Virus record (IMG/VR): IMGVR_UViG_3300037067_012588
DNA length: 64,000 nt
Reading direction: 5' to 3' (one strand)
From: a virus
Lineage: Duplodnaviria > Caudoviricetes
The position numbers were made by a program, and so were the translations under genes. Under the pieces are notes generated by a model. That model was not told the DNA's origin, made no database searches, and saw only the letters and a program-made list of their open reading frames with translations. Of the stretch, positions 4,730 through 19,480 are shown piece by piece; positions within the stretch are counted from its first letter, which is position 1, and each line of letters opens with the position of its first letter.

Positions 4730-4751
4730 TGATAGCTCCTTTCGCCTACTT

Positions 4752-5222
4752 TCAACGACAATTCGGACATACAAAGAAACCATCGAAGTTCGTCAAAAGA
4801 TAATCAGGAAAAACCTCCCAACATTGCTCACAACAACGAGTAGAAGGACCAGTACGTTCAAACCTAACAACTTCTTTCTCTTTCAAATGAGGCATGTTTT
4901 TTTCGACATATTTGTTAATATGATAGTTGGCAACGCAAGACGTACAAAGATAAATTCCATCAATGCTCGTCAGTAGATCATGGGAGTCGACAGGTTCTCC
5001 GCACTGATCGCAAACAACAGACTCATCATTTTTCGCAGATTCAACTTCGCCAGCATCCATGTCGAGGAAAGCATCACCAGTATCCTCATCCACCCACACA
5101 CGAATCAACGGAGAGCCAGAACTCCAATTGCTGACGAGCTTCCGACCTCGGAAACTTTCTAACATTCCAATCAAATCGTCAATCGTTCTGGCTGAACTTT
5201 CAAAAGCCAACTTATCACTCAT
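4752..5222 (-). CDS. hypothetical protein with two zinc ribbons
   Basis: CDQC...CTSC and CEQC...CPNC. Confidence 0.6.
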   Translation of the reverse strand: MSDKLAFESSARTIDDLIGMLESFRGRKLVSNWSSGSPLIRVWVDEDTGDAFLDMDAGEVESAKNDESVVCDQCGEPVDSHDLLTSIDGIYLCTSCVANYHINKYVEKNMPHLKEKEVVRFERTGPSTRCCEQCWEVFPDYLLTNFDGFFVCPNCR

Positions 5223-5262
5223 GCTGTTTCTCCTCGGTTGGTGTGTTGATTATACGCCTTCG

Positions 5263-5523
5263 TCAGTCTTCCTCGAATGTCAATTCTCCAAGAACGTCTG
5301 TCTTTGGAGGCAGACGCTCCAGCAACAGCTTTGTCGCTTTGTCAACCGTTGGAGGAACAAACTGATAAGGGTCATCGTTGAAGCCAAGCTCACCGCTCTT
5401 TATAGCCTTGGCAAATTTCTTTGTGGCTTCGTTTCTTCCTTCGTGTCTGATAAGTCGAAGGTCTTCAGTTGAGAATGTCCGCATTTGTGAAGTCGTTGGG
5501 TTGAACGGTTCTTCTTCGCTCAT
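5263..5523 (-). CDS. hypothetical protein
   Basis: 86-aa ORF with RBS. Confidence 0.55.
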   Translation of the reverse strand: MSEEEPFNPTTSQMRTFSTEDLRLIRHEGRNEATKKFAKAIKSGELGFNDDPYQFVPPTVDKATKLLLERLPPKTDVLGELTFEED

Positions 5524-5546
5524 GGCTGGATTCCTTTATAGCAAAA

Positions 5547-7115
5547 TTATTCACTGATGCATATCAAATTGGTCTTGTATTCCCAACCCCAACCATACTT
5601 CCCACACAAACCACTCATAAACACTTCCATCGTTACATTCTTCGCCTCATATTCCACAATACTGTCCGCATTCTCACTGAACCTCAACGAACCCTTCGAC
5701 GAATCAAGCATCTGAACGTTCGTCTGCCGAGATATTTCGAGGAACAAATCCTGCTGCTTGCAGTTAATCTTTATCGATACCTTCTTCTGAAGAATACTCG
5801 CCATCTGTGCATCCTTCGTGATTTTGCCCTTAATCGGCATCGGGTTCGCAACCGCTTCCAACTTCTTCGGCTCAAGAGACTTCGCTACCGCCGCTGCCTT
5901 GGCAACATCAACAACGGGCGCTTCCTTCGCAACAACCTTGGCGGCATACTTCTCAGCTTCCGCTGCGCCCTGAAGCGTAATCTCCCACTCACCAGTCTGT
6001 ACTGGAACCAGCTTGGCTGCATCACACACCTGCCAAACCAACTTCCGAACAGGAAGGCTGTCCGTTACCATTTTGACGGCAAGGCTACTGTCAACGCCCT
6101 CGCCAACTTTGACGGTTATGAAGCTCTTGTTGAAAAGGTCTTCACAAGCCGCCTGAAGCGTTCCTTCGTATTTGACTGCGGCAGTCTTGGCAAGAGCCTT
6201 GTCAAAGGTCAGGACTCTCTCGTAAGGATAGTTGTTCGGGTTTTCCTTGTCCTTCTCGGTTAGCAGGGTTCTGCCTTCACACATAACATCCATCTCGCAA
6301 AGACCATTCTTCTCCATCGCTGCAATGATGTCCTTAATCAGCATTTCCTTCTTGTTGTATTTGGCGTCAAGACAAAGGAAGGTCATTTTCTTCAAGTCGT
6401 ATCCGACAAGCTGAAGCTGCGTTTTGCCAGCCGTGACACCAACAGGGCGTCCACGAAGAAGCGTGTTCAGGATGTCAACTTGAACTCGTGCCTTATCAAT
6501 TGACGTTGCGAAGGGACTCTGCGTTGTCCCTTCTGACTTTATCGTAGGACGGGCAAGCTTGATGCACTTGGCTTGCGTATCGGCAACCGATGTCAATTGT
6601 GTCCGAAGGGATGCTTCATTCTTGACCTCAACGTTGTAATACTTGAGCAGCTCGATATAGAAGTCGGCGTTGTCTTTGGCTTCGATTCCGATGTCGATAA
6701 TCTTTTTGCTGTCGCAGACAGGTCCAAAGAGGAAGACTCGGTTCGGCTTCAAGTCGAAGGTGACTTCTTTTCCCGTTTCGAGGTCAGCGGCATAAATGCG
6801 TTTTTCTTTGCCGTCGTATTTGATTGCTTTGGCGAACTTGCCGTGCTTGCCGTCTTCGTGTTCAACGAACATGAGACGTCCGGGCTTGGTGAAAAACACC
6901 ATCGTGTAAGCGGTTCCAGTGGTTAAATCACCCTCATAGGTTCTTTTGAAGTCATTGTCGGAGTTTAATGTGCAGTATTTTTCCGATGTGATTTTGACAA
7001 CAAATGCACCATCTCCACCCTTTCGTTGGGCTCTCCCATCAGTCGCAAAAATCTCATCAGCCACGGCGTTTGTGGCAAGAAGGGAAAGAATCATCGCAAG
7101 AAGTGTGTTTTTCAT
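5547..7115 (-). CDS. secreted multi-domain protein, possible STN-like C-terminal domains
   Basis: signal MKNTLLAMILSLLATNAVA-D; GRPV...LVGYD...FLCLD segment; LQKKVSI..N.....F.EISRQTNV repeat-like domain. Confidence 0.7.
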   Translation of the reverse strand: MKNTLLAMILSLLATNAVADEIFATDGRAQRKGGDGAFVVKITSEKYCTLNSDNDFKRTYEGDLTTGTAYTMVFFTKPGRLMFVEHEDGKHGKFAKAIKYDGKEKRIYAADLETGKEVTFDLKPNRVFLFGPVCDSKKIIDIGIEAKDNADFYIELLKYYNVEVKNEASLRTQLTSVADTQAKCIKLARPTIKSEGTTQSPFATSIDKARVQVDILNTLLRGRPVGVTAGKTQLQLVGYDLKKMTFLCLDAKYNKKEMLIKDIIAAMEKNGLCEMDVMCEGRTLLTEKDKENPNNYPYERVLTFDKALAKTAAVKYEGTLQAACEDLFNKSFITVKVGEGVDSSLAVKMVTDSLPVRKLVWQVCDAAKLVPVQTGEWEITLQGAAEAEKYAAKVVAKEAPVVDVAKAAAVAKSLEPKKLEAVANPMPIKGKITKDAQMASILQKKVSIKINCKQQDLFLEISRQTNVQMLDSSKGSLRFSENADSIVEYEAKNVTMEVFMSGLCGKYGWGWEYKTNLICISE

Positions 7116-7170
7116 CTCTGGGGTCTCCTTTTTCAGCATCATTGTGGCAAAAAACACTTTTTGCCTAAAG

Positions 7171-7205
7171 GAACATCGTCCCAGAGATGAAAAACTTGGC
7201 GAAAA
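7171..7205 (-). promoter_or_regulatory. GACGAT-box promoter-like motif
   Basis: gaacatcgtcccagagatgaaaaacttggcgaaa on +; intergenic copy of a motif recurring about 12 times. Confidence 0.5.
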
Positions 7206-7649
7206 TCACTTCTTTTTGTCAACTTTTTCTTCAAAAGCCTTAAACGCTTCGTCAATCTGGGAGGAATTCTTGTATTCAGCACGAATATCATCGCCCAATT
7301 GGTCAAGAGACTTGCCAGATTTCATGCGCAAAAACTTCTGAACCAAATTGTCAGACACTACCCGAAGCTGACAAACAGGACACAGTTCTGTCGGAATAAT
7401 ATCTTCTTCGCCATCGTCGTCGTCATCATCCTCGTCAGGCTCTTTGTCTTCATCGCCCTTGACGCCAGCTTCGATTATCGCCTTGTCCTTCTTGGAAAGA
7501 CAGCCATAATGAAAACAATGCCCTTTCGAACACTCCGTCATGTCGACATCGGAATAGGACAAATCCCAACCAGACTCAATCCCACCACAGATATCGCAGA
7601 CAAACGAGGACGAACTGCTGTTGCTGACAAAACCTTTTCTGAGCTTCAT
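7206..7649 (-). CDS. FVSNSSS-motif protein 1 (zinc-finger type)
   Basis: MKLRKGFVSNSSSSSF-VCDICG...CSKGHCFH..C...CPVC. Confidence 0.85.
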   Translation of the reverse strand: MKLRKGFVSNSSSSSFVCDICGGIESGWDLSYSDVDMTECSKGHCFHYGCLSKKDKAIIEAGVKGDEDKEPDEDDDDDDGEEDIIPTELCPVCQLRVVSDNLVQKFLRMKSGKSLDQLGDDIRAEYKNSSQIDEAFKAFEEKVDKKK

Positions 7650-7670
7650 TTGAATTCCCTTCTTGAAAAC

Positions 7671-8117
7671 TTATTTTTCCGTAACCACACCATACGCCTT
7701 GTTGAGTTCATCATAGTTCTTGTAGTTCGCCAAAATTTCTGCCTCGACAACCTTCACCGATTTTCCAGTAACGACATGGAGGTGCATCTTAACCATTTCA
7801 TCGGTGACGACATGAAGTTGACACACGGGACAAAACACGGCAGGAACCTCGCCATATTCGCAGTCGGCGAAAATCTTTTCAATCTCAGGGTTCGGCTCTG
7901 AATCATCTTCGTGTTTGCGAAGTTTTTCTTCGGCTTCTTCAAAAACCATCATATCTTTCTGAGGAACACATGACTTGTGAAAGCAATGTCCCCTCTTGCA
8001 CTCAACCATCTCGAAATCTCTCAAGCACATGTCTCGACCAGCTTCAACCGTGCCACAGATATCGCAAACGAAAGATGACGTTGAGCTATTTGATACGAAT
8101 CCTTTCCTGATCTTCAT
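7671..8117 (-). CDS. FVSNSSS-motif protein 2 (zinc-finger type)
   Basis: MKIRKGFVSNSSTSSF-VCDICG; paralog of 7206-7649. Confidence 0.85.
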   Translation of the reverse strand: MKIRKGFVSNSSTSSFVCDICGTVEAGRDMCLRDFEMVECKRGHCFHKSCVPQKDMMVFEEAEEKLRKHEDDSEPNPEIEKIFADCEYGEVPAVFCPVCQLHVVTDEMVKMHLHVVTGKSVKVVEAEILANYKNYDELNKAYGVVTEK

Positions 8118-8323
8118 TTCCTGAACTCCTTTTGTTGAGAAATAATATGCTCCATCCTGTATGGGCAATTTTCTGGAATCATCGAAACATCGGCACGAAC
8201 ATCAATGACGAAATCTCGATTTTGAATTTTGCAAACAATGACGGCAAAATGTTCTTTTTCAAACATGAACACTTCGTGTCCGACAAAGTATTTACAAACC
8301 TTGCAGATTGAAAACAGTATCAC
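8114..8323 (-). CDS. Cys4 CP[YF]xxE[HQ]-family protein
   Basis: ICKVC...C...CPYRMEHIIS. Confidence 0.65.
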   Translation of the reverse strand: MILFSICKVCKYFVGHEVFMFEKEHFAVIVCKIQNRDFVIDVRADVSMIPENCPYRMEHIISQQKEFRK

Positions 8324-8853
8324 GAGGCATATGTCCCACCGATAATCTTTGGTTTGACATCCTTGGCAATACCAAAGGCCTTACGAATCCTTTCAACCTT
8401 CTTGGCGACATCCTCGAAGTCAAAATCTTCTGAGCCAATACATCCTTCAGAAATATGTATTGGACTAAAACCAACAACAAATTTCCCATCAACAGGACTA
8501 CTCTCGCCCCAATGAAAGCTCAAATCAGGAAATCCTTCCATAACACTTTCGTGAATCTCCATACGAAGGTCATTGATTTTCTCTTTCGTTTTTGATTCGA
8601 TCCACATTGGCTTCCCACATACTGGGCAAAAATTGGTATCCATCTCAGCATGTTCACAACCACGAGACTTTTCTGGCTCGCCAAGAAGGAGTTTGTACTC
8701 ACTGATCTTCTTTTTGGTGTTAAAGTGTGTACGCTCACCAAACTCTTCAACAAGAGCAATGTCATCAATGGAGTCACATGAGTCGACAAGAAAACCAATA
8801 ACCACAAAGCTCGATGTTGAACTATTGCTGACAAAACCATCACGTATCTTCAT
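8320..8853 (-). CDS. FVSNSSS-motif protein 3
   Basis: MKIRDGFVSNSSTSSFVVIG; internal CEH...FCPVCG. Confidence 0.85.
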   Translation of the reverse strand: MKIRDGFVSNSSTSSFVVIGFLVDSCDSIDDIALVEEFGERTHFNTKKKISEYKLLLGEPEKSRGCEHAEMDTNFCPVCGKPMWIESKTKEKINDLRMEIHESVMEGFPDLSFHWGESSPVDGKFVVGFSPIHISEGCIGSEDFDFEDVAKKVERIRKAFGIAKDVKPKIIGGTYAS

Positions 8854-9128
8854 TCTATCACCTCGATTTTCTCTTCAAGAACACCAACCATATCTGTCAA
8901 CCAAGCGTGCATGTCAAAATTATCCATCCATGTCGACAGATGCCAAAAATCTTTCTTCTGATCAACAGTCCACTCGTCTTCGATGGAGTTGGTAATCCCC
9001 CACGATTTCTCTTGAGCCAAACGGAAATGATCGACAATCATTTCTTTTTGGTCACACGACAGCCCACGAACATCGACAATGAACGATGAAGAGGAACTAT
9101 TGGATACAAACCCCTGACGTGTTTTCAT
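8850..9128 (-). CDS. FVSNSSS-motif protein 4
   Basis: MKTRQGFVSNSSSSSFIV. Confidence 0.85.
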   Translation of the reverse strand: MKTRQGFVSNSSSSSFIVDVRGLSCDQKEMIVDHFRLAQEKSWGITNSIEDEWTVDQKKDFWHLSTWMDNFDMHAWLTDMVGVLEEKIEVIE

Positions 9129-9538
9129 AATTTCCCCCACATGGATGTAATAAATAAATCATCGCACTTGATAATCGTTTCACATTCTTCACCAGCATCC
9201 CGAAGCATAGGACCGAAGTCGTCATCATCAGAAGACGCTTCGAGCATATAGACAAAGGGAAGCCTCCCCGTAATCTCGTCGAACTTCTTTTTCTGCGCTT
9301 CACACGAGCCAGGTTCTTCGTATTCCCTATCACCGAACATTCTCTCAGCGATGTCTTCGAAGCTCTTTGTTTTCTTGTTGCCAATGATGAATTTTGCAAG
9401 GCTGGACAATATGTACTCTGCAGGATGTCCATCTGTATTAAGGCACTTGTTGATAAAGTCAATAGTCAGCTCTTCTCGACTGAAAACAACAAAACTCGAA
9501 GAGGAACTGTTGGATACGAACCCATGTCTCGTCTTCAT
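9125..9538 (-). CDS. FVSNSSS-motif protein 5
   Basis: MKTRHGFVSNSSSSSFVV. Confidence 0.85.
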   Translation of the reverse strand: MKTRHGFVSNSSSSSFVVFSREELTIDFINKCLNTDGHPAEYILSSLAKFIIGNKKTKSFEDIAERMFGDREYEEPGSCEAQKKKFDEITGRLPFVYMLEASSDDDDFGPMLRDAGEECETIIKCDDLFITSMWGKL

Positions 9539-9948
9539 GACATTCTCTTTCCTGAACGAATAACAGCTTCTGCGCTCTCTGGCAAACCAAGAACTTTGCG
9601 AATTTCCTCGGTAATCCTGATTGCCTCTGTCAAAGATGTTTTGCTTGAAAGAACACCTTCGTCAGACTCTTCATCCAAGATGAGATAACCAACAACGGTG
9701 AAACCTCTCTTAACAGCATACCCGTCTTCGCAGTCGCAATAAATGAAATCGTTTTCGTTTTCATTGTTGGCGTCATAGAGCATTTCCCTGCGGGCATCTT
9801 TATCTGCCTGCAAGAACGCATCCTTGTCAATATCTGGAAACAAATCAACAACCTTACTCATGTCGATTTGTTTCGTCGGGATATCAAACCCAACAAGAAT
9901 AAAACTTGATGAAGAGCTGTTACTGACAAATCCATTACGTCTTTTCAT
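9535..9948 (-). CDS. FVSNSSS-motif protein 6
   Basis: MKRRNGFVSNSSSSSFILVG. Confidence 0.85.
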   Translation of the reverse strand: MKRRNGFVSNSSSSSFILVGFDIPTKQIDMSKVVDLFPDIDKDAFLQADKDARREMLYDANNENENDFIYCDCEDGYAVKRGFTVVGYLILDEESDEGVLSSKTSLTEAIRITEEIRKVLGLPESAEAVIRSGKRMS

Positions 9949-9949
9949 G

Positions 9950-10375
9950 TTAACACACTCCTAAGAAAATAGTTTTCATTTCAGGTCGTGAAAAAACAAA
10001 CTCTTCTGGATGCTGATGCATCGCCTGACTCACGGCTTCGAATCCGTAGTCCTCGGCATCAGAACCGACTTCCAACATATAGAGATATGGAAACTCTTCT
10101 TTAAGAGCAACAACCTCACACGGAGGATTTTTTCCAAAGTTTTCAAGAACCCAATTCTCCCATGCACTCGCCTCCATAATTCCATCGACACATGGAAACG
10201 TGACTCGTTTAGCAGCCTTTTCGATAAAGACAGACCACGCACGAACAAACATCATGGCGACATCATTATCGTTCTCAAAGCAATCTATAATGTTCTCATT
10301 CGACAATGGCTGCTTCATCCCGATGATAAAGCTTGATGACGAACTATTGCTTACGAACCCCTGACGGGTTTTCAT
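9950..10375 (-). CDS. FVSNSSS-motif protein 7
   Basis: MKTRQGFVSNSSSSSFIIG. Confidence 0.85.
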   Translation of the reverse strand: MKTRQGFVSNSSSSSFIIGMKQPLSNENIIDCFENDNDVAMMFVRAWSVFIEKAAKRVTFPCVDGIMEASAWENWVLENFGKNPPCEVVALKEEFPYLYMLEVGSDAEDYGFEAVSQAMHQHPEEFVFSRPEMKTIFLGVC

Positions 10376-10493
10376 CTTTCTTCTCCTGCTGTTTTCGGTA
10401 ACAATCGGGACAAATAATCACCGCCCGAATAGAAAATCCTTCAGGGACAGGTGAAGATACAGGTTTTCCACACAACGTACACTTCAGACGCAT
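10344..10493 (-). CDS. small zinc-ribbon protein (49 aa, below the ORF-track cutoff)
   Basis: read manually: MRLKCTLCGKPVSSPVPEGFSIRAVIICPDCYRKQQ...; AAGGA RBS. Confidence 0.55.
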   Translation of the reverse strand: MRLKCTLCGKPVSSPVPEGFSIRAVIICPDCYRKQQEKKDENPSGVRKQ

Positions 10494-10502
10494 TGTGTTT
10501 CC

Positions 10503-10889
10503 TTACTCGTTAGAAGCTTCTCCATAGAGAAGATTAATCTTGTTGACAGGAACATCAACTCCAAGTTGCTTGAACTTGTTGCAAACAATCTCACGGGCAT
10601 CTGCTAAGGAATGTTTCTCAAGAATGCCCTTGGCTTCGAACCCACAATAAGACAATTCCATTGATTCGATTGCTTCATCGAGAGTGTTATTTTCGTATGA
10701 TGGATTACCAACAAAGGTAATTCCATCAACTTCTCCAACTCCAGAACTAAATACATCCTCAATTCCAGAAATACTCATCTGGCTTTTCTCAACAACTGCT
10801 CGGAATACTTTTTTTGCAAATCCGCTCGTCCCAACAATACAAAAACTCGTCGACGAACTGTTGCTGACAAAGCCGTTGCGTGTTTTCAT
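10503..10889 (-). CDS. FVSNSSS-motif protein 8
   Basis: MKTRNGFVSNSSSTSFCIVG. Confidence 0.85.
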   Translation of the reverse strand: MKTRNGFVSNSSSTSFCIVGTSGFAKKVFRAVVEKSQMSISGIEDVFSSGVGEVDGITFVGNPSYENNTLDEAIESMELSYCGFEAKGILEKHSLADAREIVCNKFKQLGVDVPVNKINLLYGEASNE

Positions 10890-10910
10890 GATACTTTCCT
10901 TTTTGACAAA

Positions 10911-11378
10911 TCAGTGATGACTAACCACAATGTTTGGAACATTATGGAAAATGTCTCCGTGCTCCAACATGCCATAATAATCCCCGTCTTCATCGCTGAA
11001 CATGAAAAAACAGATGTCCGAATCAGGATTTCCTCTGACGAAATCCATTACCGTTTCCTTTTCATATTTCCAACGAGGCTCATTCTCGTTATACTCAGAG
11101 TCAACAATAACACCCCCAACATCCTTGCCGCAATGCGGACAAGTGCATTTGATCTGAACAATTGCCGAATCATCTTCTGAGGAAATATTTCTGTGGAGAG
11201 TATCAAGGACCTCATCGACAGAATACTTCCCGACAAATTCATCTTTGTCAAACAACAACTTCTTCAGGCGAGCCTTCATTTTTTCTTTCGGAAGCTTCAC
11301 GGTCCCCTTGGGAAATGCAACGATAAAGCTTGACGAAGAGCTGTTGGATACAAATCCATTACGATGTTTCATATACAC
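10911..11378 (-). CDS. FVSNSSS-motif protein 9
   Basis: (MY)MKHRNGFVSNSSSSSFIVAF; CPHCG; C-terminal LEHGDIF...SHH. Confidence 0.85.
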   Translation of the reverse strand: MYMKHRNGFVSNSSSSSFIVAFPKGTVKLPKEKMKARLKKLLFDKDEFVGKYSVDEVLDTLHRNISSEDDSAIVQIKCTCPHCGKDVGGVIVDSEYNENEPRWKYEKETVMDFVRGNPDSDICFFMFSDEDGDYYGMLEHGDIFHNVPNIVVSHH

Positions 11379-11384
11379 TTCCTT

Positions 11385-12332
11385 TCACAACTGATTCATT
11401 ATACCCACGGTGTTATTAAAATCACACTTGAAATCCATGCAAAAATCACAACAGAGAGAATCCTTCGACGAGTTGTGTTCCTGAAACCAAGCACGACGGC
11501 TTTCCATCATCGAGTCGTCAACCTCGCCTATCGCAGCGCCTCCCTCACGAAGATACACAGCACAAGGATAGTGCTTTGTGCCCTTTATTGTGACATCGTC
11601 AAGGCTTAAGAAACAACGATTGCAGTCAGACGCCTCCAATCCACGCATACCCCTGCCGTTTGCGAACCTTGACGCCCTATAGCGAAGAATTCGATGCTTT
11701 CCAAACAAGTCTTCAACCCCAGACAGGTCAACCTTCGAAACATCGTTCTGGCTTGCCGTTCCAACCTTGATATCAGAAACACCAAGCTCGGAAATAAACC
11801 GAACAATCTTCGATGCCTCAGACATGTTCTTTTCGTCAAACACCGTTCCAATCTGGATATCTGAACGACAAGAAGCCAAAAACCGAATACAGCGGACAAC
11901 GTTGTCAAAATCCTGCTGCCTTTCACTCTCAACAGCGGTATCGAGAGAGATTGCAAACGAACGACATCCAGCCTGTACGATTTTTTCATAAAGGTCCAAA
12001 TCTGCCGAGCCATTCGTTGACATTCGAACAACAGGAATTCTCCATGCGGCATAAGACACAATATCGATAATATCCTGTCTTGTCATCGGTTCGCCACCAG
12101 TGATATGGTAATAGCGACACCCAAGACTTGCAACCTTATCAATGATTCGACAAATGCCTTCAAGTGACTGATCGTCATCCGAACAAAGGCAATTGCAATA
12201 CGAGCAACTGAAGTTACATTTTGCCGTAACAACATGCTCGCAGTATGTCAGCTTGTCAGACGAACCACAAGAAAGGCGATTCGCTCTTTCCAATGAGATT
12301 CCGTGGAATCCAAAATCGTCTAACCTTGTCAT
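11385..12332 (-). CDS. radical SAM protein with C-terminal auxiliary Cys cluster (twitch/SPASM-like)
   Basis: CNFSCSYC, ITGGEP, STNG, C-terminal C..C...YPC...CCDFC. Confidence 0.9.
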   Translation of the reverse strand: MTRLDDFGFHGISLERANRLSCGSSDKLTYCEHVVTAKCNFSCSYCNCLCSDDDQSLEGICRIIDKVASLGCRYYHITGGEPMTRQDIIDIVSYAAWRIPVVRMSTNGSADLDLYEKIVQAGCRSFAISLDTAVESERQQDFDNVVRCIRFLASCRSDIQIGTVFDEKNMSEASKIVRFISELGVSDIKVGTASQNDVSKVDLSGVEDLFGKHRILRYRASRFANGRGMRGLEASDCNRCFLSLDDVTIKGTKHYPCAVYLREGGAAIGEVDDSMMESRRAWFQEHNSSKDSLCCDFCMDFKCDFNNTVGIMNQL

Positions 12333-12341
12333 TTTGAAGCC

Positions 12342-13115
12342 TCACGTTCTGCGGACACAAACACCACACCGAGACAAATCTTCCTTGATTCCCGAACAGG
12401 TATAGCCCATGAAGTGAACCATACTCGCAACCAACACGGCGTCAGCATTGCCATCTACCAATACCCTTGCAAGATGCTGCGTCAAACCAGCTCCTCCAGA
12501 TGCTATTACTGGAATACAGACAGCATCTGAAACACACCTTGTCGCCTCAATGTCATACCCACATTTCGTTCCATCGGCATCGATAGAGTTAAGACAGATT
12601 TCACCAGCTCCCAAGCCTTCCACCTTTCGTGCCCAATCGAGCATGTCGAGTCCTGATGGAAGCAGACCACCGTTTGTCACAACCTCATACCCACTTGGAA
12701 ACTTCGAACAAACACTTCGCCGCACGTCCATCCCAACCACAATACATTGGCTTCCAAACGCCTTTGCTCCATCGGCGATGATTTCTGGTGTCCTGACAGC
12801 GATGGAATTTACCGACACCTTATCTGCACCAGCCAGTAATACCCTTCGCATGTCCTCAACACAACCTATTCCACCACCAACACAAAACGGAACAAAGACT
12901 TTCCTCGCCACTTCCTCCACCATGCCAATATCTATGGGGCGACCTTCCGATGATGCCGAGATGTCGTAAAACACCAACTCGTCAACATCGTCAGCGTAAT
13001 ACGCAGCCGCCATCTCGACAGGGTCTCCGATTTCAACGTTCTCCCGAAACTTGACTCCCTTAGTGACCCTTCTGTTTTTGACGTCAAGACAAACAATCAA
13101 GCGTTTTGACAGCAT
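12342..13115 (-). CDS. hisF: imidazole glycerol phosphate synthase cyclase subunit
   Basis: CLDV, KGVKF, GDPVE, VGGGI, GADKVSVNS, FGSQCIVVGMD, GAGEICLNSIDADGT..GYD, PVIASGGAG. Confidence 0.93.
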   Translation of the reverse strand: MLSKRLIVCLDVKNRRVTKGVKFRENVEIGDPVEMAAAYYADDVDELVFYDISASSEGRPIDIGMVEEVARKVFVPFCVGGGIGCVEDMRRVLLAGADKVSVNSIAVRTPEIIADGAKAFGSQCIVVGMDVRRSVCSKFPSGYEVVTNGGLLPSGLDMLDWARKVEGLGAGEICLNSIDADGTKCGYDIEATRCVSDAVCIPVIASGGAGLTQHLARVLVDGNADAVLVASMVHFMGYTCSGIKEDLSRCGVCVRRT

Positions 13116-13124
13116 TTTGAAGCC

Positions 13125-14135
13125 TCATTTCAGTGCCGCACGGATACTCTCAAAGAGCTGTTTCGCCAGAAGCGAAGGGATACCGCCGCCGCAGCACGCA
13201 TACTGTTTCTGAAGAGGGATATCATCATCAAAAACAAAGCTGTCTGGTGCTGTTTGGATTCGCAAGCTCTCCCGAATAGTGAAGCGACGATTCCCATACA
13301 ACTGAACACTGTGCTTCCCCATGACATGCGACATCACCGTGAAAGCAGGTTCTTCAGGGTCAACCTTTCGCAGATACGTTGTCTTGCCGCCCGGCGAAGA
13401 AAAAGCGTTCTTCATGAATGCCTTCTGGTCTGCAAGCGGAAGGTCTTTCCAATTCCCACCGTCAGGAACCTTGTGGGCAAACGGCTTCTCATCGTTCCGC
13501 AGGTCAAACCCATAGTGGTTGTTGACACCATCAGGAACAGGCGACAAGCCAACCAGTGCTTCTCGGACGCAAACCTTCTGCGCTGCCTTTGCTGGCCACT
13601 GGAAGCCTTTGTCCAAGTTTGGCTTTATCCCGATGATAATCACTCGCTCTCTCTTCTGAGGAACGCCATAATCCGCAGCGTTCAAAAGTCCAGAATAGAT
13701 GTTGTAACCGAACCCTCCAAGTTTTTTCTTCAAGTCGTTGAAGAACTCAGCGTGTGACTTTGAAGCCAAGCCCTTCACGTTTTCAAGAAGAAAGAACTTC
13801 GGCTCTTTTTGCCTGATGATTTCCAAGGCGACATAGCCGAGCGTTCCGTATCGAGAGTCATTTACCCCGAGTCGCTTGCCGCTTGTCGAAAAAGAATTGC
13901 AGGGGAACCCAGCCATGACACCGTCTGTAAACGGCAAGTCTTTCGCTACATCGAGCTTCTTCGCATCCAGCACATGAGCGACAGGATGAACGTTCTTGTT
14001 GAACACACGAACCGACACAAGGTCGTTGTCAAACGCAAAAACTGTCTGAAAACCAGCAGCCTTTGCACCAAAAGCACCAATGCCAGCCCCGCAGAAACAA
14101 TCAAGAACCGTCAACATTTTCATCACCATCTCCAA
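13125..14135 (-). CDS. dcm: DNA cytosine-C5 methyltransferase
   Basis: FCGAG (I), GFPCNSFS (IV), ENVKG (VI), PQKRERV (VIII); motif X divergent. Confidence 0.92.
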   Translation of the reverse strand: MEMVMKMLTVLDCFCGAGIGAFGAKAAGFQTVFAFDNDLVSVRVFNKNVHPVAHVLDAKKLDVAKDLPFTDGVMAGFPCNSFSTSGKRLGVNDSRYGTLGYVALEIIRQKEPKFFLLENVKGLASKSHAEFFNDLKKKLGGFGYNIYSGLLNAADYGVPQKRERVIIIGIKPNLDKGFQWPAKAAQKVCVREALVGLSPVPDGVNNHYGFDLRNDEKPFAHKVPDGGNWKDLPLADQKAFMKNAFSSPGGKTTYLRKVDPEEPAFTVMSHVMGKHSVQLYGNRRFTIRESLRIQTAPDSFVFDDDIPLQKQYACCGGGIPSLLAKQLFESIRAALK

Positions 14136-14324
14136 TTATAACCTACCCCATGTCGAGTAGTCCGCTTCTGTGCGAGGTCCTTCATCGTCGTGCGGAAAAT
14201 CAACCTTGTCACTCAACCTATCCTTGTGTTCGTTGCAGGCAAAGTAAACCATGTTGAACGTGTGGCATTTCCACTTTGCTCTTTTTCCACATGAACACTT
14301 TGCCTTACCACTATACTTTTCCAT
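14136..14324 (-). CDS. small zinc-binding hypothetical protein
   Basis: CSCG...ACNEH; C-terminal TEADY.TW. Confidence 0.55.
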   Translation of the reverse strand: MEKYSGKAKCSCGKRAKWKCHTFNMVYFACNEHKDRLSDKVDFPHDDEGPRTEADYSTWGRL

Positions 14325-14394
14325 CCTTCCTGCTACTCCTCTTTGATAACAACGAACAGTCTAAATGACCCTTTGCGCCTCAGAAAGAACAACG

Positions 14395-15930
14395 TCATTC
14401 TCCGACATTGATTTCAGGAAAAGCAATACAACGACGGCATCCATCACACTCACGCACCGAACAGAGCAACTTCTGACGCCACGACTCAACACGAGGATGA
14501 TGCCAGACATTGTCGAAAGGCTCATCATCGAGAACCGAAATCCCCTGACCGTCCATCCACTCGCCATCGCCTTCGCAGAAGCTGCAAGGGTAAAACTCAC
14601 CCTTCTGGTTGATGTACGAACTGAACAACGTCGACTCGCAACTCTCAACCACATTCAGGAGCGCTTGCTTTTGCTCATCGGAAATCTGCATCTTCTTCAC
14701 AACATCGGCAAACTTCGGAGCAGAACAAGAATCGAATCCGATACGAACACCCATGTTCATACAGCCGACAGCAAGTGTTGCAAACTTCTCGAACGACAAA
14801 GGGGTGAAGCTTCCCTTTGCCCGACCCTTCGGTTTGACTCCGAGGAAAACGATGCAATTCATCTTGGCAAGGCGAGGGTCACGAATCTTGTCCATGACGA
14901 TTTCCTTGACGAAATCATACGTCTGTTCACTGACCATAGCATGAATATTCACTTGTTTCATGCCCCTGTCCGTCAGCATCTTGATGGTATTGTATCCGAC
15001 ATTCTTGTCGGTCTGATAAACCGATACGGCAACAGCCCCACAGGTCGCCGCAATCTTATCGGCGATTTCCTCGGTGATGTCGATACCAGAAAGCGTGAAG
15101 TTCGGAACAACACCTTTCTCCCGGCTGTATTCCATCATACGGAAGAAGTCAGGATTCGTCTGAACACCCGTAATGCCGAACGCAATCTGCGTCAGTGTCT
15201 TGGGCATCTTGTCGAGAATCTTCTTGAACGTATCAAACGTCATGTTTTCTGCAGGGGTGTTGGAGTTGCCCTTGTAGCAATTATGAACGAGAAGTCCATT
15301 CGCAAAAAAAACATGGTCTGGGCTACAACCAATGTCGTAAACAGTTCCCTTGAATGGTGTCTTAACAATGTTCTTGATCTTCACCTTTGTGTCTCCTATA
15401 AGAACAACATCGTCATTGGGAGACAAATCACCAGCCCGAACTTCCTTGCCAGTGGCAAGCATAACCATGTGGTCTTCTGTCATTTCAACAATACGACCAC
15501 CTTCCAACTCAACAACAACCATAAGTCCGTCATATTCTCGACTGTGAAGCTGCTCAACCGTTTCTTCACGGACAGAACTGGTTGCAAAATTGAATCCAAA
15601 AACCTTGTCTCCCGCTCGGAGGTCTTCAATGTTCACCAGTCCAGACGGGGTATTCACAGGAACCCCTGCTGGCAAACAGAAGCGACAGTTGTTCGGACAA
15701 CCATTCACACTAATTTCGAGATCAAGAATCTCAGGACCAACAGGAAGCCACGAAGGGTCTTCGTCTTCTGTCTTTCCCCATCGGGAAAACTCCCCCGTCA
15801 GCTTGTCGAAGCGGGAGTGAAACGAACCATCGGTCGCATCGACAGTTTTGCTTGTTGCTGTATCCTGAATGACATACAGATGCCCATGCGTCTCATACAT
15901 GTATTCACGATTCACAAATTCATGATTCAT
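14395..15930 (-). CDS. radical SAM/SPASM protein interrupted by a mini-intein
   Basis: spliced motif CPNNCRFCYK; SPASM-like CESTLFSSYINQKGEFYPCSF...CDGCRRC. Confidence 0.9.
   Translation of the reverse strand: MNHEFVNREYMYETHGHLYVIQDTATSKTVDATDGSFHSRFDKLTGEFSRWGKTEDEDPSWLPVGPEILDLEISVNGCPNNCRFCLPAGVPVNTPSGLVNIEDLRAGDKVFGFNFATSSVREETVEQLHSREYDGLMVVVELEGGRIVEMTEDHMVMLATGKEVRAGDLSPNDDVVLIGDTKVKIKNIVKTPFKGTVYDIGCSPDHVFFANGLLVHNCYKGNSNTPAENMTFDTFKKILDKMPKTLTQIAFGITGVQTNPDFFRMMEYSREKGVVPNFTLSGIDITEEIADKIAATCGAVAVSVYQTDKNVGYNTIKMLTDRGMKQVNIHAMVSEQTYDFVKEIVMDKIRDPRLAKMNCIVFLGVKPKGRAKGSFTPLSFEKFATLAVGCMNMGVRIGFDSCSAPKFADVVKKMQISDEQKQALLNVVESCESTLFSSYINQKGEFYPCSFCEGDGEWMDGQGISVLDDEPFDNVWHHPRVESWRQKLLCSVRECDGCRRCIAFPEINVGE
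15280..15678 (-). mobile_element. mini-intein (133 aa, Hint domain, no homing endonuclease)
   Basis: N-terminal CLPAG, block B MTEDH, block F VYDIGCSPDHVFFANG, C-terminal VHN followed by Cys+1. Confidence 0.92.
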
Positions 15931-15935
15931 GTTTT

Positions 15936-16298
15936 CTATTCCTTTTCGATATGTTTGCCTTCAGACCACGCCTTGAAAAGATTGAGAAAATCGCCACGAC
16001 AGCTTTTGCAACAACGAACGTTGAACAAGCTCTTTTCCAGCAATCGCACGGCGGGAATCGGAACCTGTTTACAGTCGATGGTCGTCAGGCTTCCTTTGAC
16101 ATCGCTGACAAATAAGCTATCAACCGTTCCAGCAGGATAGCGTTTCGTTCTTGCGAGATACTTTATATCTTCGGGAACTTCTGTCAACACAGTTTCAACA
16201 ACGGCGCTCGGAACAAGCTCCCTTATCTCGTAAAGACACTCAACACCAACGTGTCGCATGTCTTCGCATTCTCCACCACAAATCGGACATTTTTCCAT
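15936..16298 (-). CDS. zinc-ribbon hypothetical protein
   Basis: CPICG...CKSCR. Confidence 0.6.
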   Translation of the reverse strand: MEKCPICGGECEDMRHVGVECLYEIRELVPSAVVETVLTEVPEDIKYLARTKRYPAGTVDSLFVSDVKGSLTTIDCKQVPIPAVRLLEKSLFNVRCCKSCRGDFLNLFKAWSEGKHIEKE

Positions 16299-16387
16299 GT
16301 GGGTATCCCTTAAACAACGACCTCTCGAAAATCACTTTCAAAAGGTCATCGTCTTCATCTCAAGAAATTTGGAGAAAATCTTGAAAA

Positions 16388-16765
16388 TCAACTTCCGCCA
16401 CTCAAAATCTTGAGAGCCTTTTCTCCATCAAGCGCAACGATAGAGCCATCGCCATCACTAACAGAAATAGTTGCAACAACAAAATCTGAAAGAACATCTT
16501 GAATGAGGGCAAAGAAATCACCATGCCCGTATTCAGGAAGCTCATACGAACAAAAACCACAACCATCCACGATTGACTTTTTAATGACTTGGTTCATTTT
16601 CTTTGCGACAAAATCAACTCCGCCGATTTCTTTGACGTATTTCTTCTTCCAGTCATCGTTGTCAAATCCAGACAACATTTCCTTTGTTACCTTGAAATCC
16701 TTCCTTAAGGCGACAACGAAAGATGTTGAGCTGGAATTCGAAACAAACCCATCACGATACTTCAT
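16388..16765 (-). CDS. FVSNSSS-motif protein 10
   Basis: MKYRDGFVSNSSSTSFVVA, GGAGG RBS before 16765. Confidence 0.85.
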   Translation of the reverse strand: MKYRDGFVSNSSSTSFVVALRKDFKVTKEMLSGFDNDDWKKKYVKEIGGVDFVAKKMNQVIKKSIVDGCGFCSYELPEYGHGDFFALIQDVLSDFVVATISVSDGDGSIVALDGEKALKILSGGS

Positions 16766-18317: not shown

Positions 18318-18602
18318 TCATTCCTCCAAAAAAAAATGCTCAAGCAAATACCTACACTTCTTCGGAATGGAGCTCTTTCCAGTCACATACGGAAATCTCC
18401 TCCTGTATTTATCCCATCGATGAACAGCTTTGTTCCTATTCCATATTGGACAAGAGACTAACTCAAATCCAAGAATAGACCATGATTTACTTACAGAGTC
18501 ATATGTTGGATTTCCAGAGTGAACACACCCAGCGATAGACAAACATTTCTCGCAAATCTTGTCATGCTCAGGATTAGTCTTCACACCGCATCCACCTTTC
18601 AT
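18318..18602 (-). CDS. Cys4 CP[YF]xxE[HQ]-family protein
   Basis: ICEKC...SCPIW...CRYLLEH. Confidence 0.6.
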   Translation of the reverse strand: MKGGCGVKTNPEHDKICEKCLSIAGCVHSGNPTYDSVSKSWSILGFELVSCPIWNRNKAVHRWDKYRRRFPYVTGKSSIPKKCRYLLEHFFLEE

Positions 18603-19152
18603 CCAAAATACTAAATATTTCTTCGATGCTTATCGGGAGAAAATTATGAACATCCACTCCAACATCGACCGAGCTATATCTCGGAGAAGGTGACGGACAA
18701 CCATGACAATGTCCGTGAAGATGAACATGAGGACGTGACGGAAGAAGGTCTAAGGCAAGCGGACGATGATTCAGGACGAAAAAGAACCCGTCTATCTCGG
18801 TAATCAGCAAACCGCTCTTGACGCTTTCAAATCCTGCATTTATTACGGTGTTCTTTCTGTCATGATTACCCAAGACCAAATGGATTTTTCCATTCAATCT
18901 ATCCCGTATCTTTTTGAGGTTTTTCCCAAATGAAAAATCACCGAGGTGGTAAACAGTATCCTCAGCACCAACAACACTATTCCACTTGGCAATCAACGCC
19001 TCATTCATCTCAAGAGTTCGAGCATCCTTGATTTCTCTAGAAACCCATTCTCCAGAATCGTCCAAGTCTCCATTACGAATCCACGGACGCCCGCACATCT
19101 TTATGATGTTTCCGTGATAGAAATGAGTATCGCTTGTGAAGAATGTATCCAT
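18574..19152 (-). CDS. calcineurin-like metallophosphoesterase
   Basis: SDTHF.H, HLGDF, LGNHD, HLHGHCH, VDVGVD. Confidence 0.92.
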   Translation of the reverse strand: MDTFFTSDTHFYHGNIIKMCGRPWIRNGDLDDSGEWVSREIKDARTLEMNEALIAKWNSVVGAEDTVYHLGDFSFGKNLKKIRDRLNGKIHLVLGNHDRKNTVINAGFESVKSGLLITEIDGFFFVLNHRPLALDLLPSRPHVHLHGHCHGCPSPSPRYSSVDVGVDVHNFLPISIEEIFSILDERWMRCED

Positions 19153-19159
19153 GAGTTCC

Positions 19160-19480
19160 TCAAAACATAGGAATGCCATCTTTTGAGATGGAAACGATAA
19201 TCTCACCGTTTTTCACCGTGACAACAACCTTACCTTCTCGCTCAAGCCACCCAACCGCTCTTGCAGTTTCTATGGCAGGAACCTTCATATCCAAGGCAAT
19301 CTTAAGCAGAGATACTGGTCCTGTTTTACGAACAACCTGATTGACGGCATAGGCTCGTGCTGCCGTTTCGCTTGTGTCTCCCACAACACTCTCCTCCCAG
19401 ATACTCAATCTGGCTTTACAGGCGTGCGCTTTTTGATGCACATTGGGCAAAGGATTTTTCCACCCTTGTTCATCTGCCAA
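19160..19480 (-). CDS. winged-helix protein (start uncertain)
   Basis: ARAVGWLEREGKV wHTH-like C-terminus. Confidence 0.5.
   Translation of the reverse strand: MADEQGWKNPLPNVHQKAHACKARLSIWEESVVGDTSETAARAYAVNQVVRKTGPVSLLKIALDMKVPAIETARAVGWLEREGKVVVTVKNGEIIVSISKDGIPMF

Follow-up and report, generated by a model that had tools for sequence, protein, structure and literature searches.

The DNA analyzed here is a stretch of 64,000 nucleotides, called the window below, from the IMG/VR virus record IMGVR_UViG_3300037067_012588 (Duplodnaviria; Caudoviricetes). It encodes ten small proteins that all begin with the same 16-residue tag, together with a radical S-adenosylmethionine (SAM) enzyme (positions 14395 to 15930) that is strongly supported as the partner enzyme of this tag, and as the sole one in the window. 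On balance, we consider it probable that these genes constitute a two-part phage system, in which the enzyme is active only once a mini-intein splices out and restores its CxxxCxxC motif, and in which the tag serves the ten client proteins as the site of docking and modification. The source phage is uncultured and has a genome of about 345 kb; the longest contig that carries the protein encoded at 10911-11372 measures 344,634 bp. DNA nearly identical to the window is carried by groundwater and landfill metagenomes, and no RNA data set among the public runs was found to contain it. Nearly all genes of the window lie on the minus strand.

Ten proteins of the window begin with the same tag

A six-frame motif scan and a profile search agreed on exactly ten tagged proteins, the number given in an earlier note that had been made from the sequence alone. 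The profile E values of the ten copies range from 2e-19 to 8e-16, and the next match in the window has an E value of 0.21. The tag occupies residues 1 to 16 and has the consensus M-K-x-R-x-G-F-V-S-N-S-S-[ST]-[ST]-S-F. All ten genes lie on the minus strand, nine in an array that runs from 11372 down to 7206 and one, the tenth (16765-16388), on the upstream side of the enzyme gene. Each begins with an ATG (at 7649, 8117, 8853, 9128, 9538, 9948, 10375, 10889, 11372, and 16765) that is preceded by a Shine-Dalgarno-like GGAG/AAGGA box. For three of these genes the true start is the ATG at 8117, 9128, and 11372, and not the upstream TTG or GTG of the longest open reading frame (ORF). Several of the tagged genes share an overlap of 4 nucleotides (8853/8850, 9128/9125, and 9538/9535). 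The enzyme and its clients are as follows (pI, isoelectric point).

14395-15930, minus strand: precursor of the radical SAM enzyme, 511 residues, 378 after splicing; from Pfam, homologues, alignment, and model
15280-15678, minus strand: mini-intein of 133 residues; from the Pfam models Intein_splicing, PT-HINT, and Hint and from translation boundaries
16388-16765, minus strand: tagged client 10, 125 residues, pI 5.3, upstream of the enzyme gene; from motif and profile
10911-11372, minus strand: tagged client 9, 153 residues, phrog_7397 type with a C-terminal SDxDG...LEHGD...SHH
10503-10889, minus strand: tagged client 8, 128 residues, body type found in 6 loci
9950-10375, minus strand: tagged client 7, 141 residues, singleton body
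9535-9948, minus strand: tagged client 6, 137 residues, singleton body
9125-9538, minus strand: tagged client 5, 137 residues, singleton body
8850-9128, minus strand: tagged client 4, 92 residues, "STWMDNFDM" body type found in 19 loci
8320-8853, minus strand: tagged client 3, 177 residues
7671-8117, minus strand: tagged client 2, 148 residues, Cys/His zinc-finger body type
7206-7649, minus strand: tagged client 1, 147 residues, pI 4.5, zinc-finger type, 46% identical to client 2

The gap that separates client 2 from client 3 is taken up by an untagged ORF of 69 residues (8114-8323), which directly adjoins the start of client 2. The array of another tag locus, L056, likewise has one untagged small ORF inside it (12361-12651).

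Residues M1, K2, R4, G6, F7, V8, S9, N10, S11, S12, S15, and F16 are invariant among the ten tags, and the proteins begin to diverge after residue 18. Synonymous codons vary between the copies, with serine encoded by both AGY and TCN, arginine by AGA, AGG, CGT, and CGC, and glycine by all four of its codons. The switching of serine between AGY and TCN, together with this free synonymous variation, shows that the tag is under selection as a peptide and not as DNA, which is what the earlier note had argued. All ten clients are acidic (pI 4.5 to 5.4). Outside the window, some tags have Ser, Cys, or Asp in place of Gly6.

A profile of 32 positions, built from the ten N termini, was searched against a library of 1.84 billion representative proteins. 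At E <= 1e-3 it matched 22,696 clusters (at 50% identity), a number that may include serine-rich false positives, inspection having covered the best 150 matches (149 retrieved). The motif stands at residue 1 in 147 of these 149 proteins, which fits the recognition of a free N terminus; the proteins have approximately 40 to 280 residues. A few library proteins carry the motif twice, with M-K before each copy, and look like fused neighboring genes. One library protein with a zinc-finger body, P0081, has a sister tag, M-K-x-R-x-D-F-V-T-N-S-S-S-S-S-Y, in which G6 is replaced by D, S9 by T, and F16 by Y.

The tag and the enzyme are linked in both directions

Seventy-six IMG/VR loci seeded with the tag show tandem arrays on one strand, with up to 13 copies per 20 kb. 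All neighbors of the tagged genes in the window were compared with these loci, the enzyme with its intein removed. A homologue of the window enzyme lies within 10 kb in 49 of the 76 (38 to 56% identity; E values of 1e-60 to 1e-131), on the tag strand in all 49 and mostly directly upstream of the array. When the enzyme was used as the seed, tag genes were found in 79 of 80 loci (median of 5), and 407 of 408 tags were on the enzyme strand, the sole exception being cut at a contig end. The earlier note had staked its proposal on genomic co-occurrence of the motif with radical SAM genes, and the proposal stands on this count. Most tag records that lack the enzyme are fragments. A search over the whole length of the 26 remaining tag records found the enzyme elsewhere in 9, including all four of those that are at least 90% complete. 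Clustering of all ORFs in the tag loci placed the enzyme family in 50 loci and any other non-tag family in at most 7; this clustering revealed no shared protease or second enzyme and no co-conserved secretion or head gene.

The pair also occurs in cultured T4-like enterobacterial phages, namely, RB43, RB16, KP15, Matisse, and GAP161. In the T4-like phages, the enzyme is present in 172 records and two tagged proteins are present in 174 to 175, with nearly the same tallies per genus; since these phages are one clade, they were counted as one observation. Megaphage contigs and archaeal contigs from metagenome-assembled genomes (MAGs) carry the pair as well. Among 185,579 species genomes, 39 loci with the tag pattern were found, mostly in MAGs, and 25 of the 39 have the enzyme. 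Seven tag loci (L095 at 4736-9502, L100, L101, L105, L107, L113, and L115) are chromosomal and come from bacterial MAGs, Acidobacteriota and Verrucomicrobiota among them. Common to the seven is a cassette, whole in five and partial in two, that consists of a 959-residue SMEK_N and NACHT nucleoside triphosphatase (NTPase), an ORF of 128 residues, a single tagged protein of 137 residues, and the enzyme. The enzyme of the bacterial cassette is 27 to 31% identical to that of the window, and the tag is unchanged. In L095 the cassette adjoins integrases/recombinases. The bacterial cassette looks like a defense-type system built on the same pair of enzyme and tag.

The partner is a radical SAM enzyme interrupted by an intein

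The architecture of the enzyme comprises an N-terminal all-beta domain predicted to serve in docking, a barrel with the CxxxCxxC motif, and a C-terminal twitch/SPASM-like domain with four conserved cysteines. The spliced protein of the window reads C-PNN-C-RF-C, which places it in the radical SAM superfamily (PF04055). The three cysteines (C66, C70, and C73) are invariant in 31 homologues, with a longer spacing between the first and the second in some. A bacterial homologue scores 51.5 bits against PF04055 (cutoff of 29.5); the window precursor scores 21.5 bits because the intein splits the motif. Both radical SAM genes that the earlier note had reported, at 11385-12332 and 14395-15930, are present. 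For the SPASM domain (PF13186), with which it had labeled the latter, the score is 17.3 bits in the window enzyme and 19.0 bits in the bacterial homologue, both under the Pfam cutoff of 21.5. Only four additional cysteines are invariant in the 31 homologues (C258, C287, C305, and C349 of the L056 enzyme). Together with the subthreshold SPASM match, these four cysteines fit a single auxiliary cluster of the twitch kind better than a full SPASM domain.

The conserved N-terminal stretch of about 55 residues (YNYxF...GFFxRWG...DDP) was modeled as four beta strands. The homologue from L056 gave a model with a predicted local distance difference test (pLDDT) score of 93.9. The solved structures nearest to the enzyme in Foldseek are SuiB (E value of 7e-10; template modeling [TM] score of 0.61), SkfB, CteB, TigE, and anSMEcpe (TM of 0.58), all of which are peptide- or protein-modifying enzymes. 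In sequence, the family is distant from each of them and from every named maturase of NCBIfam. A sequence-profile search of solved structures placed pentatricopeptide repeat proteins on top, and these were rejected as repeat artifacts.

The mini-intein of 133 residues sits exactly at the third cysteine of CxxxCxxC (...CPNNCRF / C-LPAG...VHN / C-YKGN..., with slashes at the junctions). Its assignment follows from the Pfam Intein_splicing match (1.4e-11) and from the junctions F/CLPAG and VHN/C. Enzyme homologues in other phages are uninterrupted at this site. A relative that is about 85% identical and is found in public contigs of the same groundwater study (run X1) lacks exactly 399 nucleotides here (joint 15277>15677, shiftable by 2). 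The depth of this intein-less relative is 2.6, versus 22, and alleles with and without the intein therefore coexist. A further joint in X1, 8853>14806, had only 24 letters on one side; it was taken as an assembly artifact and was not used.

In another tag locus, L008 (7474-9782), the enzyme gene is interrupted just after CxxxCxxC, and the N-terminal piece aligns with the window intein at 39% identity over 142 residues. The interruption probably represents a second intein in the position of the first, with an insert of larger size.

Co-folding places the tag in the conserved cavity of the enzyme

The co-fold combined the intein-free enzyme of L056, SAM, and two 4Fe-4S clusters with residues 1 to 40 of a client that is encoded in the same locus. 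The ipSAE score was 0.85, against 0.00 for the best of three controls; among 80 solved complexes 58 attain this mark, and among 110 mismatched pairs 2 do. Agreement between the runs extended to at least 79% of their contacts, with a partner pLDDT of at least 57. Co-folding of the tag with the enzyme was another check that the earlier note had named, and this homologue passes it.

In the co-fold, tag residues 1 to 20 all contact the enzyme, within its conserved cavity. Residues 1 to 7 pair with enzyme residues 32 to 38, which form the GFFxRWG strand, and F7 touches Q104, N133, and G155/A156, which are located where the SAM-holding barrel strands of the superfamily end. Residues 8 to 20 run along enzyme residues 183 to 187, 215 to 220, 252 to 258, 279 to 293, and 305 to 307. 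The interface comprises 61 residues and includes 27 of the 37 residues that are invariant in the family (Fisher p = 6e-16).

The client bodies are diverse

BLAST clustering of the 296 tagged ORFs from the 76 IMG/VR loci gave approximately 101 body clusters. The commonest body is the Cys/His zinc-finger type, which has 37 members, spread over 24 loci, and includes window genes 7206 and 7671. Others that recur are the phrog_7397 type (22 members; window gene 10911, with the C-terminal motif listed above) and the 92-residue type (19 members; window gene 8850). Client size has a median of 129 residues outside the window and ranges from 92 to 177 residues within it. Only client 9 (10911-11372) matches phrog_7397 beyond the tag, in two stretches (E value of 4e-13). 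Of the nine other clients, 10503-10889 matches weakly (E value of 0.089; positions 1-18 alone), and the rest match profile positions 1-20 to 1-47 only. The 67 homologues of client 9 were aligned, and the C-terminal SDxDG...LEHGD...SHH is conserved among them. No significant match was found in Pfam, NCBIfam, or PADLOC for any of the ten clients.

In the AlphaFold2 (AF2) monomer model of client 9, tag residues 13 to 21 form the central beta strand, and residues 1 to 10 are flexible, of low confidence, and exposed. Fold searches with a client of the phrog_7397 type gave no clear match in Foldseek against the Protein Data Bank (PDB) (best E value of 2.7), in VIA-align against all PDB representatives (best Z of 3.1, with generic ferredoxin-like rows), or in BFVD (best E value of 0.72), results that do not in themselves establish a new fold. 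A search of the ESM Atlas returned unnamed viral clusters only.

In a low-depth contig of run X1, 213 nucleotides of client 7 (10099-10313) are swapped for 216 unrelated letters, so that strains which occur together differ in their client bodies.

A block of three genes separates the enzyme from the array

In other phages the usual order is the enzyme and then the array, with nothing between them. In the window, the following genes lie between the two (11385-14135).

11385-12332: MoaA/viperin-like radical SAM protein, resembling MoaA, viperin, and QueE-type enzymes
12342-13115: full-length hisF (TIGR00735, 311.6 bits)
13125-14135: C5 cytosine DNA methyltransferase

Neither hisF nor the methyltransferase has a homologue near the tag in any of the 76 loci, and the PMBT1 reference locus holds the sole match to the cytosine methyltransferase among the loci compared. 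We read the three genes as a local insertion that lies outside the enzyme-tag system; the block may be a nucleotide or DNA modification module.

Two small Cys-rich ORFs with CxxC pairs flank the enzyme gene, at 15936-16298 (120 residues) and 14136-14324 (62 residues); neither a family match nor a homologue in related loci was found for them, and they may be members of the Cys4 family that occurs elsewhere in this genome. A calcineurin-like phosphoesterase (18574-19206 in the window), a DUF5662 protein, and a protein of 150 to 190 residues that starts with MRIVITGHR recur near the module in 5 to 7 loci, which is a weak neighborhood association. In L056, the coordinates of module neighbors are 7837-8385 and 7252-7818.

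Comparison with known systems and candidate chemistry

The solved structure nearest to the enzyme model is that of SuiB/StrB, which acts on SuiA/StrA (streptide Lys-Trp cross-link; PDB 5V1Q, 5V1S, and 5V1T). Chemistry of this type forms an intramolecular C-C bond in a ribosomal peptide, with a loss of 2 Da (PMC10114670). The two enzymes have in common the radical SAM barrel and a C-terminal Fe-S domain, but they are only 15 to 16% identical, with a sequence-profile E value of 0.016. SuiB has an N-terminal recognition element (RRE) of peptides that are synthesized ribosomally and modified posttranslationally (RiPPs) and two auxiliary clusters, whereas the enzyme described here has an all-beta N-terminal domain and four extra cysteines. 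Its substrates also differ, being proteins of 90 to 280 residues with a tag at the extreme N terminus that lacks Trp, and with neither leader removal nor a protease.

Anaerobic sulfatase-maturating enzymes (anSME) act on sulfatases before they fold; a short motif of a whole protein is modified, the C-beta of a Ser or Cys being oxidized (−2 Da). AtsB and anSMEcpe (PDB 4K36-4K39), which are radical SAM/SPASM proteins, resemble the enzyme of the window in their size and in having no RRE, with a TM score of 0.58 on both sides. In the case of AtsB, it is the serine C-beta that is oxidized (PMC10114670). In contrast to anSME substrates, the tag has no C/S-x-P/A-x-R motif and the clients are varied and are not sulfatases, a sulfatase domain being absent from all ten in Pfam; anSME also has two auxiliary clusters, and none of the anSME models of NCBIfam gives a match to the enzyme at E <= 1e-3.

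The nearest published system is that of the FxSxx-COOH peptides with their radical SAM/SPASM enzyme, in which an F-x-S-x-x motif is C-terminal, release is by a zincin peptidase, and the setting is that of NTPase-based conflict systems (Kaur et al. 2020, PMC7159879). FxsB, XyeB, and GrrB form cyclophanes on their peptides (three-residue cyclophanes in the case of XyeB and GrrB), according to PMC10114670, where Nguyen et al. 2020 is cited. As in those systems, a radical SAM enzyme is found here with fast-diverging small proteins that share a short motif, the tag containing F7-V8-S9-N10-S11, of which F7-V8-S9 is invariant; the NTPase conflict setting has its parallel in the NACHT NTPase beside the bacterial form. 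Haft and Basu (2011) are reportedly among the sources for the FxSxx-COOH/FxsB systems. The motif of the window proteins is, however, N-terminal and has no linked peptidase, and no FxsB, XyeB, or GrrM model of NCBIfam matches the enzyme at E <= 1e-3. In view of this lack of a match, the F-x-S resemblance may be taken as a lead only.

Prochlorosins with ProcM, and the Nif11/NHLP leaders, are cases in which one maturase serves tandem precursors that share a near-invariant recognition sequence and have a hypervariable remainder. The gene arrangement here is alike, with a maturase gene beside a tandem array that shares a near-invariant sequence. In those RiPPs, however, a long, cleaved leader precedes a short modified peptide, whereas here 16 residues precede a folded domain, and the conserved part is predicted by the co-fold to lie inside the active site. 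Nor does the system have the features of a RiPP pathway, with clients of 92 to 177 residues, no co-conserved peptidase, and an N-terminal domain without RRE helices; in the co-fold it is the N-terminal beta domain of the enzyme that takes the docking role of the RRE.

As the tag has neither Cys nor Trp, thioether and Lys-Trp links are out. By analogy with the enzymes above, the chemistry would most likely be a change of −2 Da in residues 7 to 16, before folding, in the form of a three-residue cyclophane on F7-V8-S9 or of oxidation of a serine C-beta. A glycyl-radical site was considered from the likeness of R-x-G-F to RVxG[FY] of glycyl radical enzymes and was rejected: the spacing differs, Gly6 is replaced in some tags, and the enzyme does not belong to the activase type. 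An N-terminal catalytic loop like those of metallophosphoesterases, HAD, or PP-loop proteins was also rejected, as there are no family matches and the bodies are unrelated.

Proposed mechanism and alternative explanations

In the mechanism that we propose, residues M1 to G6 of a new, unfolded client would pair as a beta strand with the GFFxRWG strand of the enzyme, and residues 7 to 16 (F-V-S-N-S-S-S-S-S-F) would stretch over the SAM barrel at its open end. The 5'-deoxyadenosyl radical would abstract a hydrogen from these residues and the single auxiliary cluster would take up the electron, leaving a product lighter by 2 Da, with either a C-C cross-link at Phe7-x-Ser9 (of the kind that FxsB/XyeB make on F/W-x-x motifs) or one oxidized serine (of the anSME kind). 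After release, residues 13 to 21 would take up their place in the fold of the client, as its central strand. Because residues 13 to 21 are buried in the modeled client, the enzyme would have to act before the client folds.

Several observations weigh against this mechanism, in which the covalent change, the residue changed, and the timing are inferences, or against the linkage behind it. Motifs of characterized substrates are missing from the tag, which contains neither Cys nor Trp nor C/SxPxR, and no NCBIfam maturase model, including anSME and FxsB/XyeB/GrrM, matches the enzyme at E <= 1e-3. The alignments supplied for the co-fold were our own and, like the ligands carried along in it, fall outside its calibration; since peptide complexes of SuiB, anSME, and CteB have been solved, its success may also partly reflect likeness to these. 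As the model of client 9 has residues 13 to 21 in a buried strand, conservation of the tag could be partly structural. In the cultured T4-like phages, about 20 kb separate the enzyme gene from the tagged genes, and on two viral records that are fairly complete, G005 (88%) and G012 (79%), tags were found and no enzyme.

Linkage and co-folding demonstrate partnership and not catalysis, and what is conserved in a RiPP precursor is in many cases the leader used for recognition and not the core that is modified. The tag could accordingly be no more than a high-affinity handle by which each client reaches the enzyme, with the enzyme modifying the client body, a small molecule, or a nucleic acid, or with the clients regulating the enzyme or being carried by it. 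We consider such docking without tag chemistry unlikely, if still a serious contender: some 100 body types offer no common residue or motif to a single active site, the co-fold puts residues 7 to 16 across the conserved barrel mouth beside the residues that hold SAM, and the serine run is invariant although the modeled docking strand is formed by residues 1 to 6. Little credence is due to an ordinary paralogous family, in which the tag would be the first strand and loop of a very divergent fold that expanded in phages, with the enzyme as a neighbor for unrelated reasons. The central strand of the monomer model fits that idea, as do several bodies in which a strand leads into an acidic loop of SDxDG-like sequence, or in which a strand stands at the C terminus. 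But 16 invariant residues beside 101 clusters that BLAST does not connect are unlike the evolution of a fold core, and two-way linkage across nonsyntenic contexts, from T4-like phages to NACHT cassettes, demands a functional reason. The possibility raised in the earlier note, that the motif is just a buried strand, holds in part, since residues 13 to 21 form the central strand in the monomer model; residues 1 to 10 are exposed there, with low confidence.

T4 internal proteins carry capsid-targeting sequences that are shared by unrelated cargo, and the fixed N-terminal position of the tag on unrelated bodies is reminiscent of these. A signal for the capsid, for export, or for a protease is nevertheless highly improbable, as no protease, secretion, or head gene is co-conserved and the same tag occurs in bacterial chromosomal NACHT cassettes, where there is no capsid. 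The prepilin-like cleavage between G and F that the earlier note had listed falls with it, there being no co-conserved protease and no hydrophobic helix after the tag. That note had also assigned the tag, as recognition or substrate site, to both of the radical SAM enzymes in the window. The two-way linkage, the lack of other shared genes, and the co-fold lend this strong support in the case of the enzyme at 14395-15930. The protein at 11385-12332, whose gene ends 12 nucleotides before the first gene of the array, could in principle perform a second step, and in L028 a homologue (33% identity) lies just downstream of the array. It is, however, the only homologue near a tag in the 76 loci, being absent from the other 75; the protein resembles small-molecule enzymes of the MoaA, viperin, and QueE types and not peptide maturases, and its gene forms, together with hisF and the gene of a DNA methyltransferase, a block that breaks up the usual order of enzyme and array. 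A second step by this protein thus has very little probability.

Significance

Radical SAM/SPASM enzymes mature short peptides (RiPPs) and one class of proteins, the sulfatases. Here, one radical SAM enzyme appears to have dozens of unrelated folded proteins as its clients, via an N-terminal tag of 16 residues. The tag occurs in about 22,700 clusters, yet no entry for it was found in Pfam, NCBIfam, or the literature; for both the tag and the enzyme family, no published description was found in a search that covered the literature in part, with subscription journals largely outside it. The window adds the ten clients, the intein with its intein-less allele, the inserted three-gene block, and the exclusion of the second radical SAM enzyme. 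An intein in the cluster-binding motif is a possible switch on enzyme activity. Since cultured coliphages that are amenable to genetics (RB43 and RB16) carry the pair, both its chemistry and its role are directly testable. If the tag is modified as proposed, the clients would be a new class of substrates, possibly with new chemistry, for radical SAM enzymology, the modification would give a first handle on many "hypothetical" early genes of phages, and the enzyme and tag would be a portable pair for protein engineering.

The small size and acidity of the clients, their setting among small genes of early type, and the bacterial NACHT cassettes suggest a role of the enzyme-tag system in the conflict between phage and host. 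A bolder version, which we hold to be rather improbable, is that an N-terminal cross-link or reactive group made by the radical enzyme is the working part, that the bodies aim it at different host targets, for example defense systems, and that bacteria use the same pair as the effector or trigger arm of their NACHT immune cassettes. Were this so, the tag, with its approximately 22,700 clusters, would mark an unrecognized chemical weapon common to both sides of the phage-host conflict.

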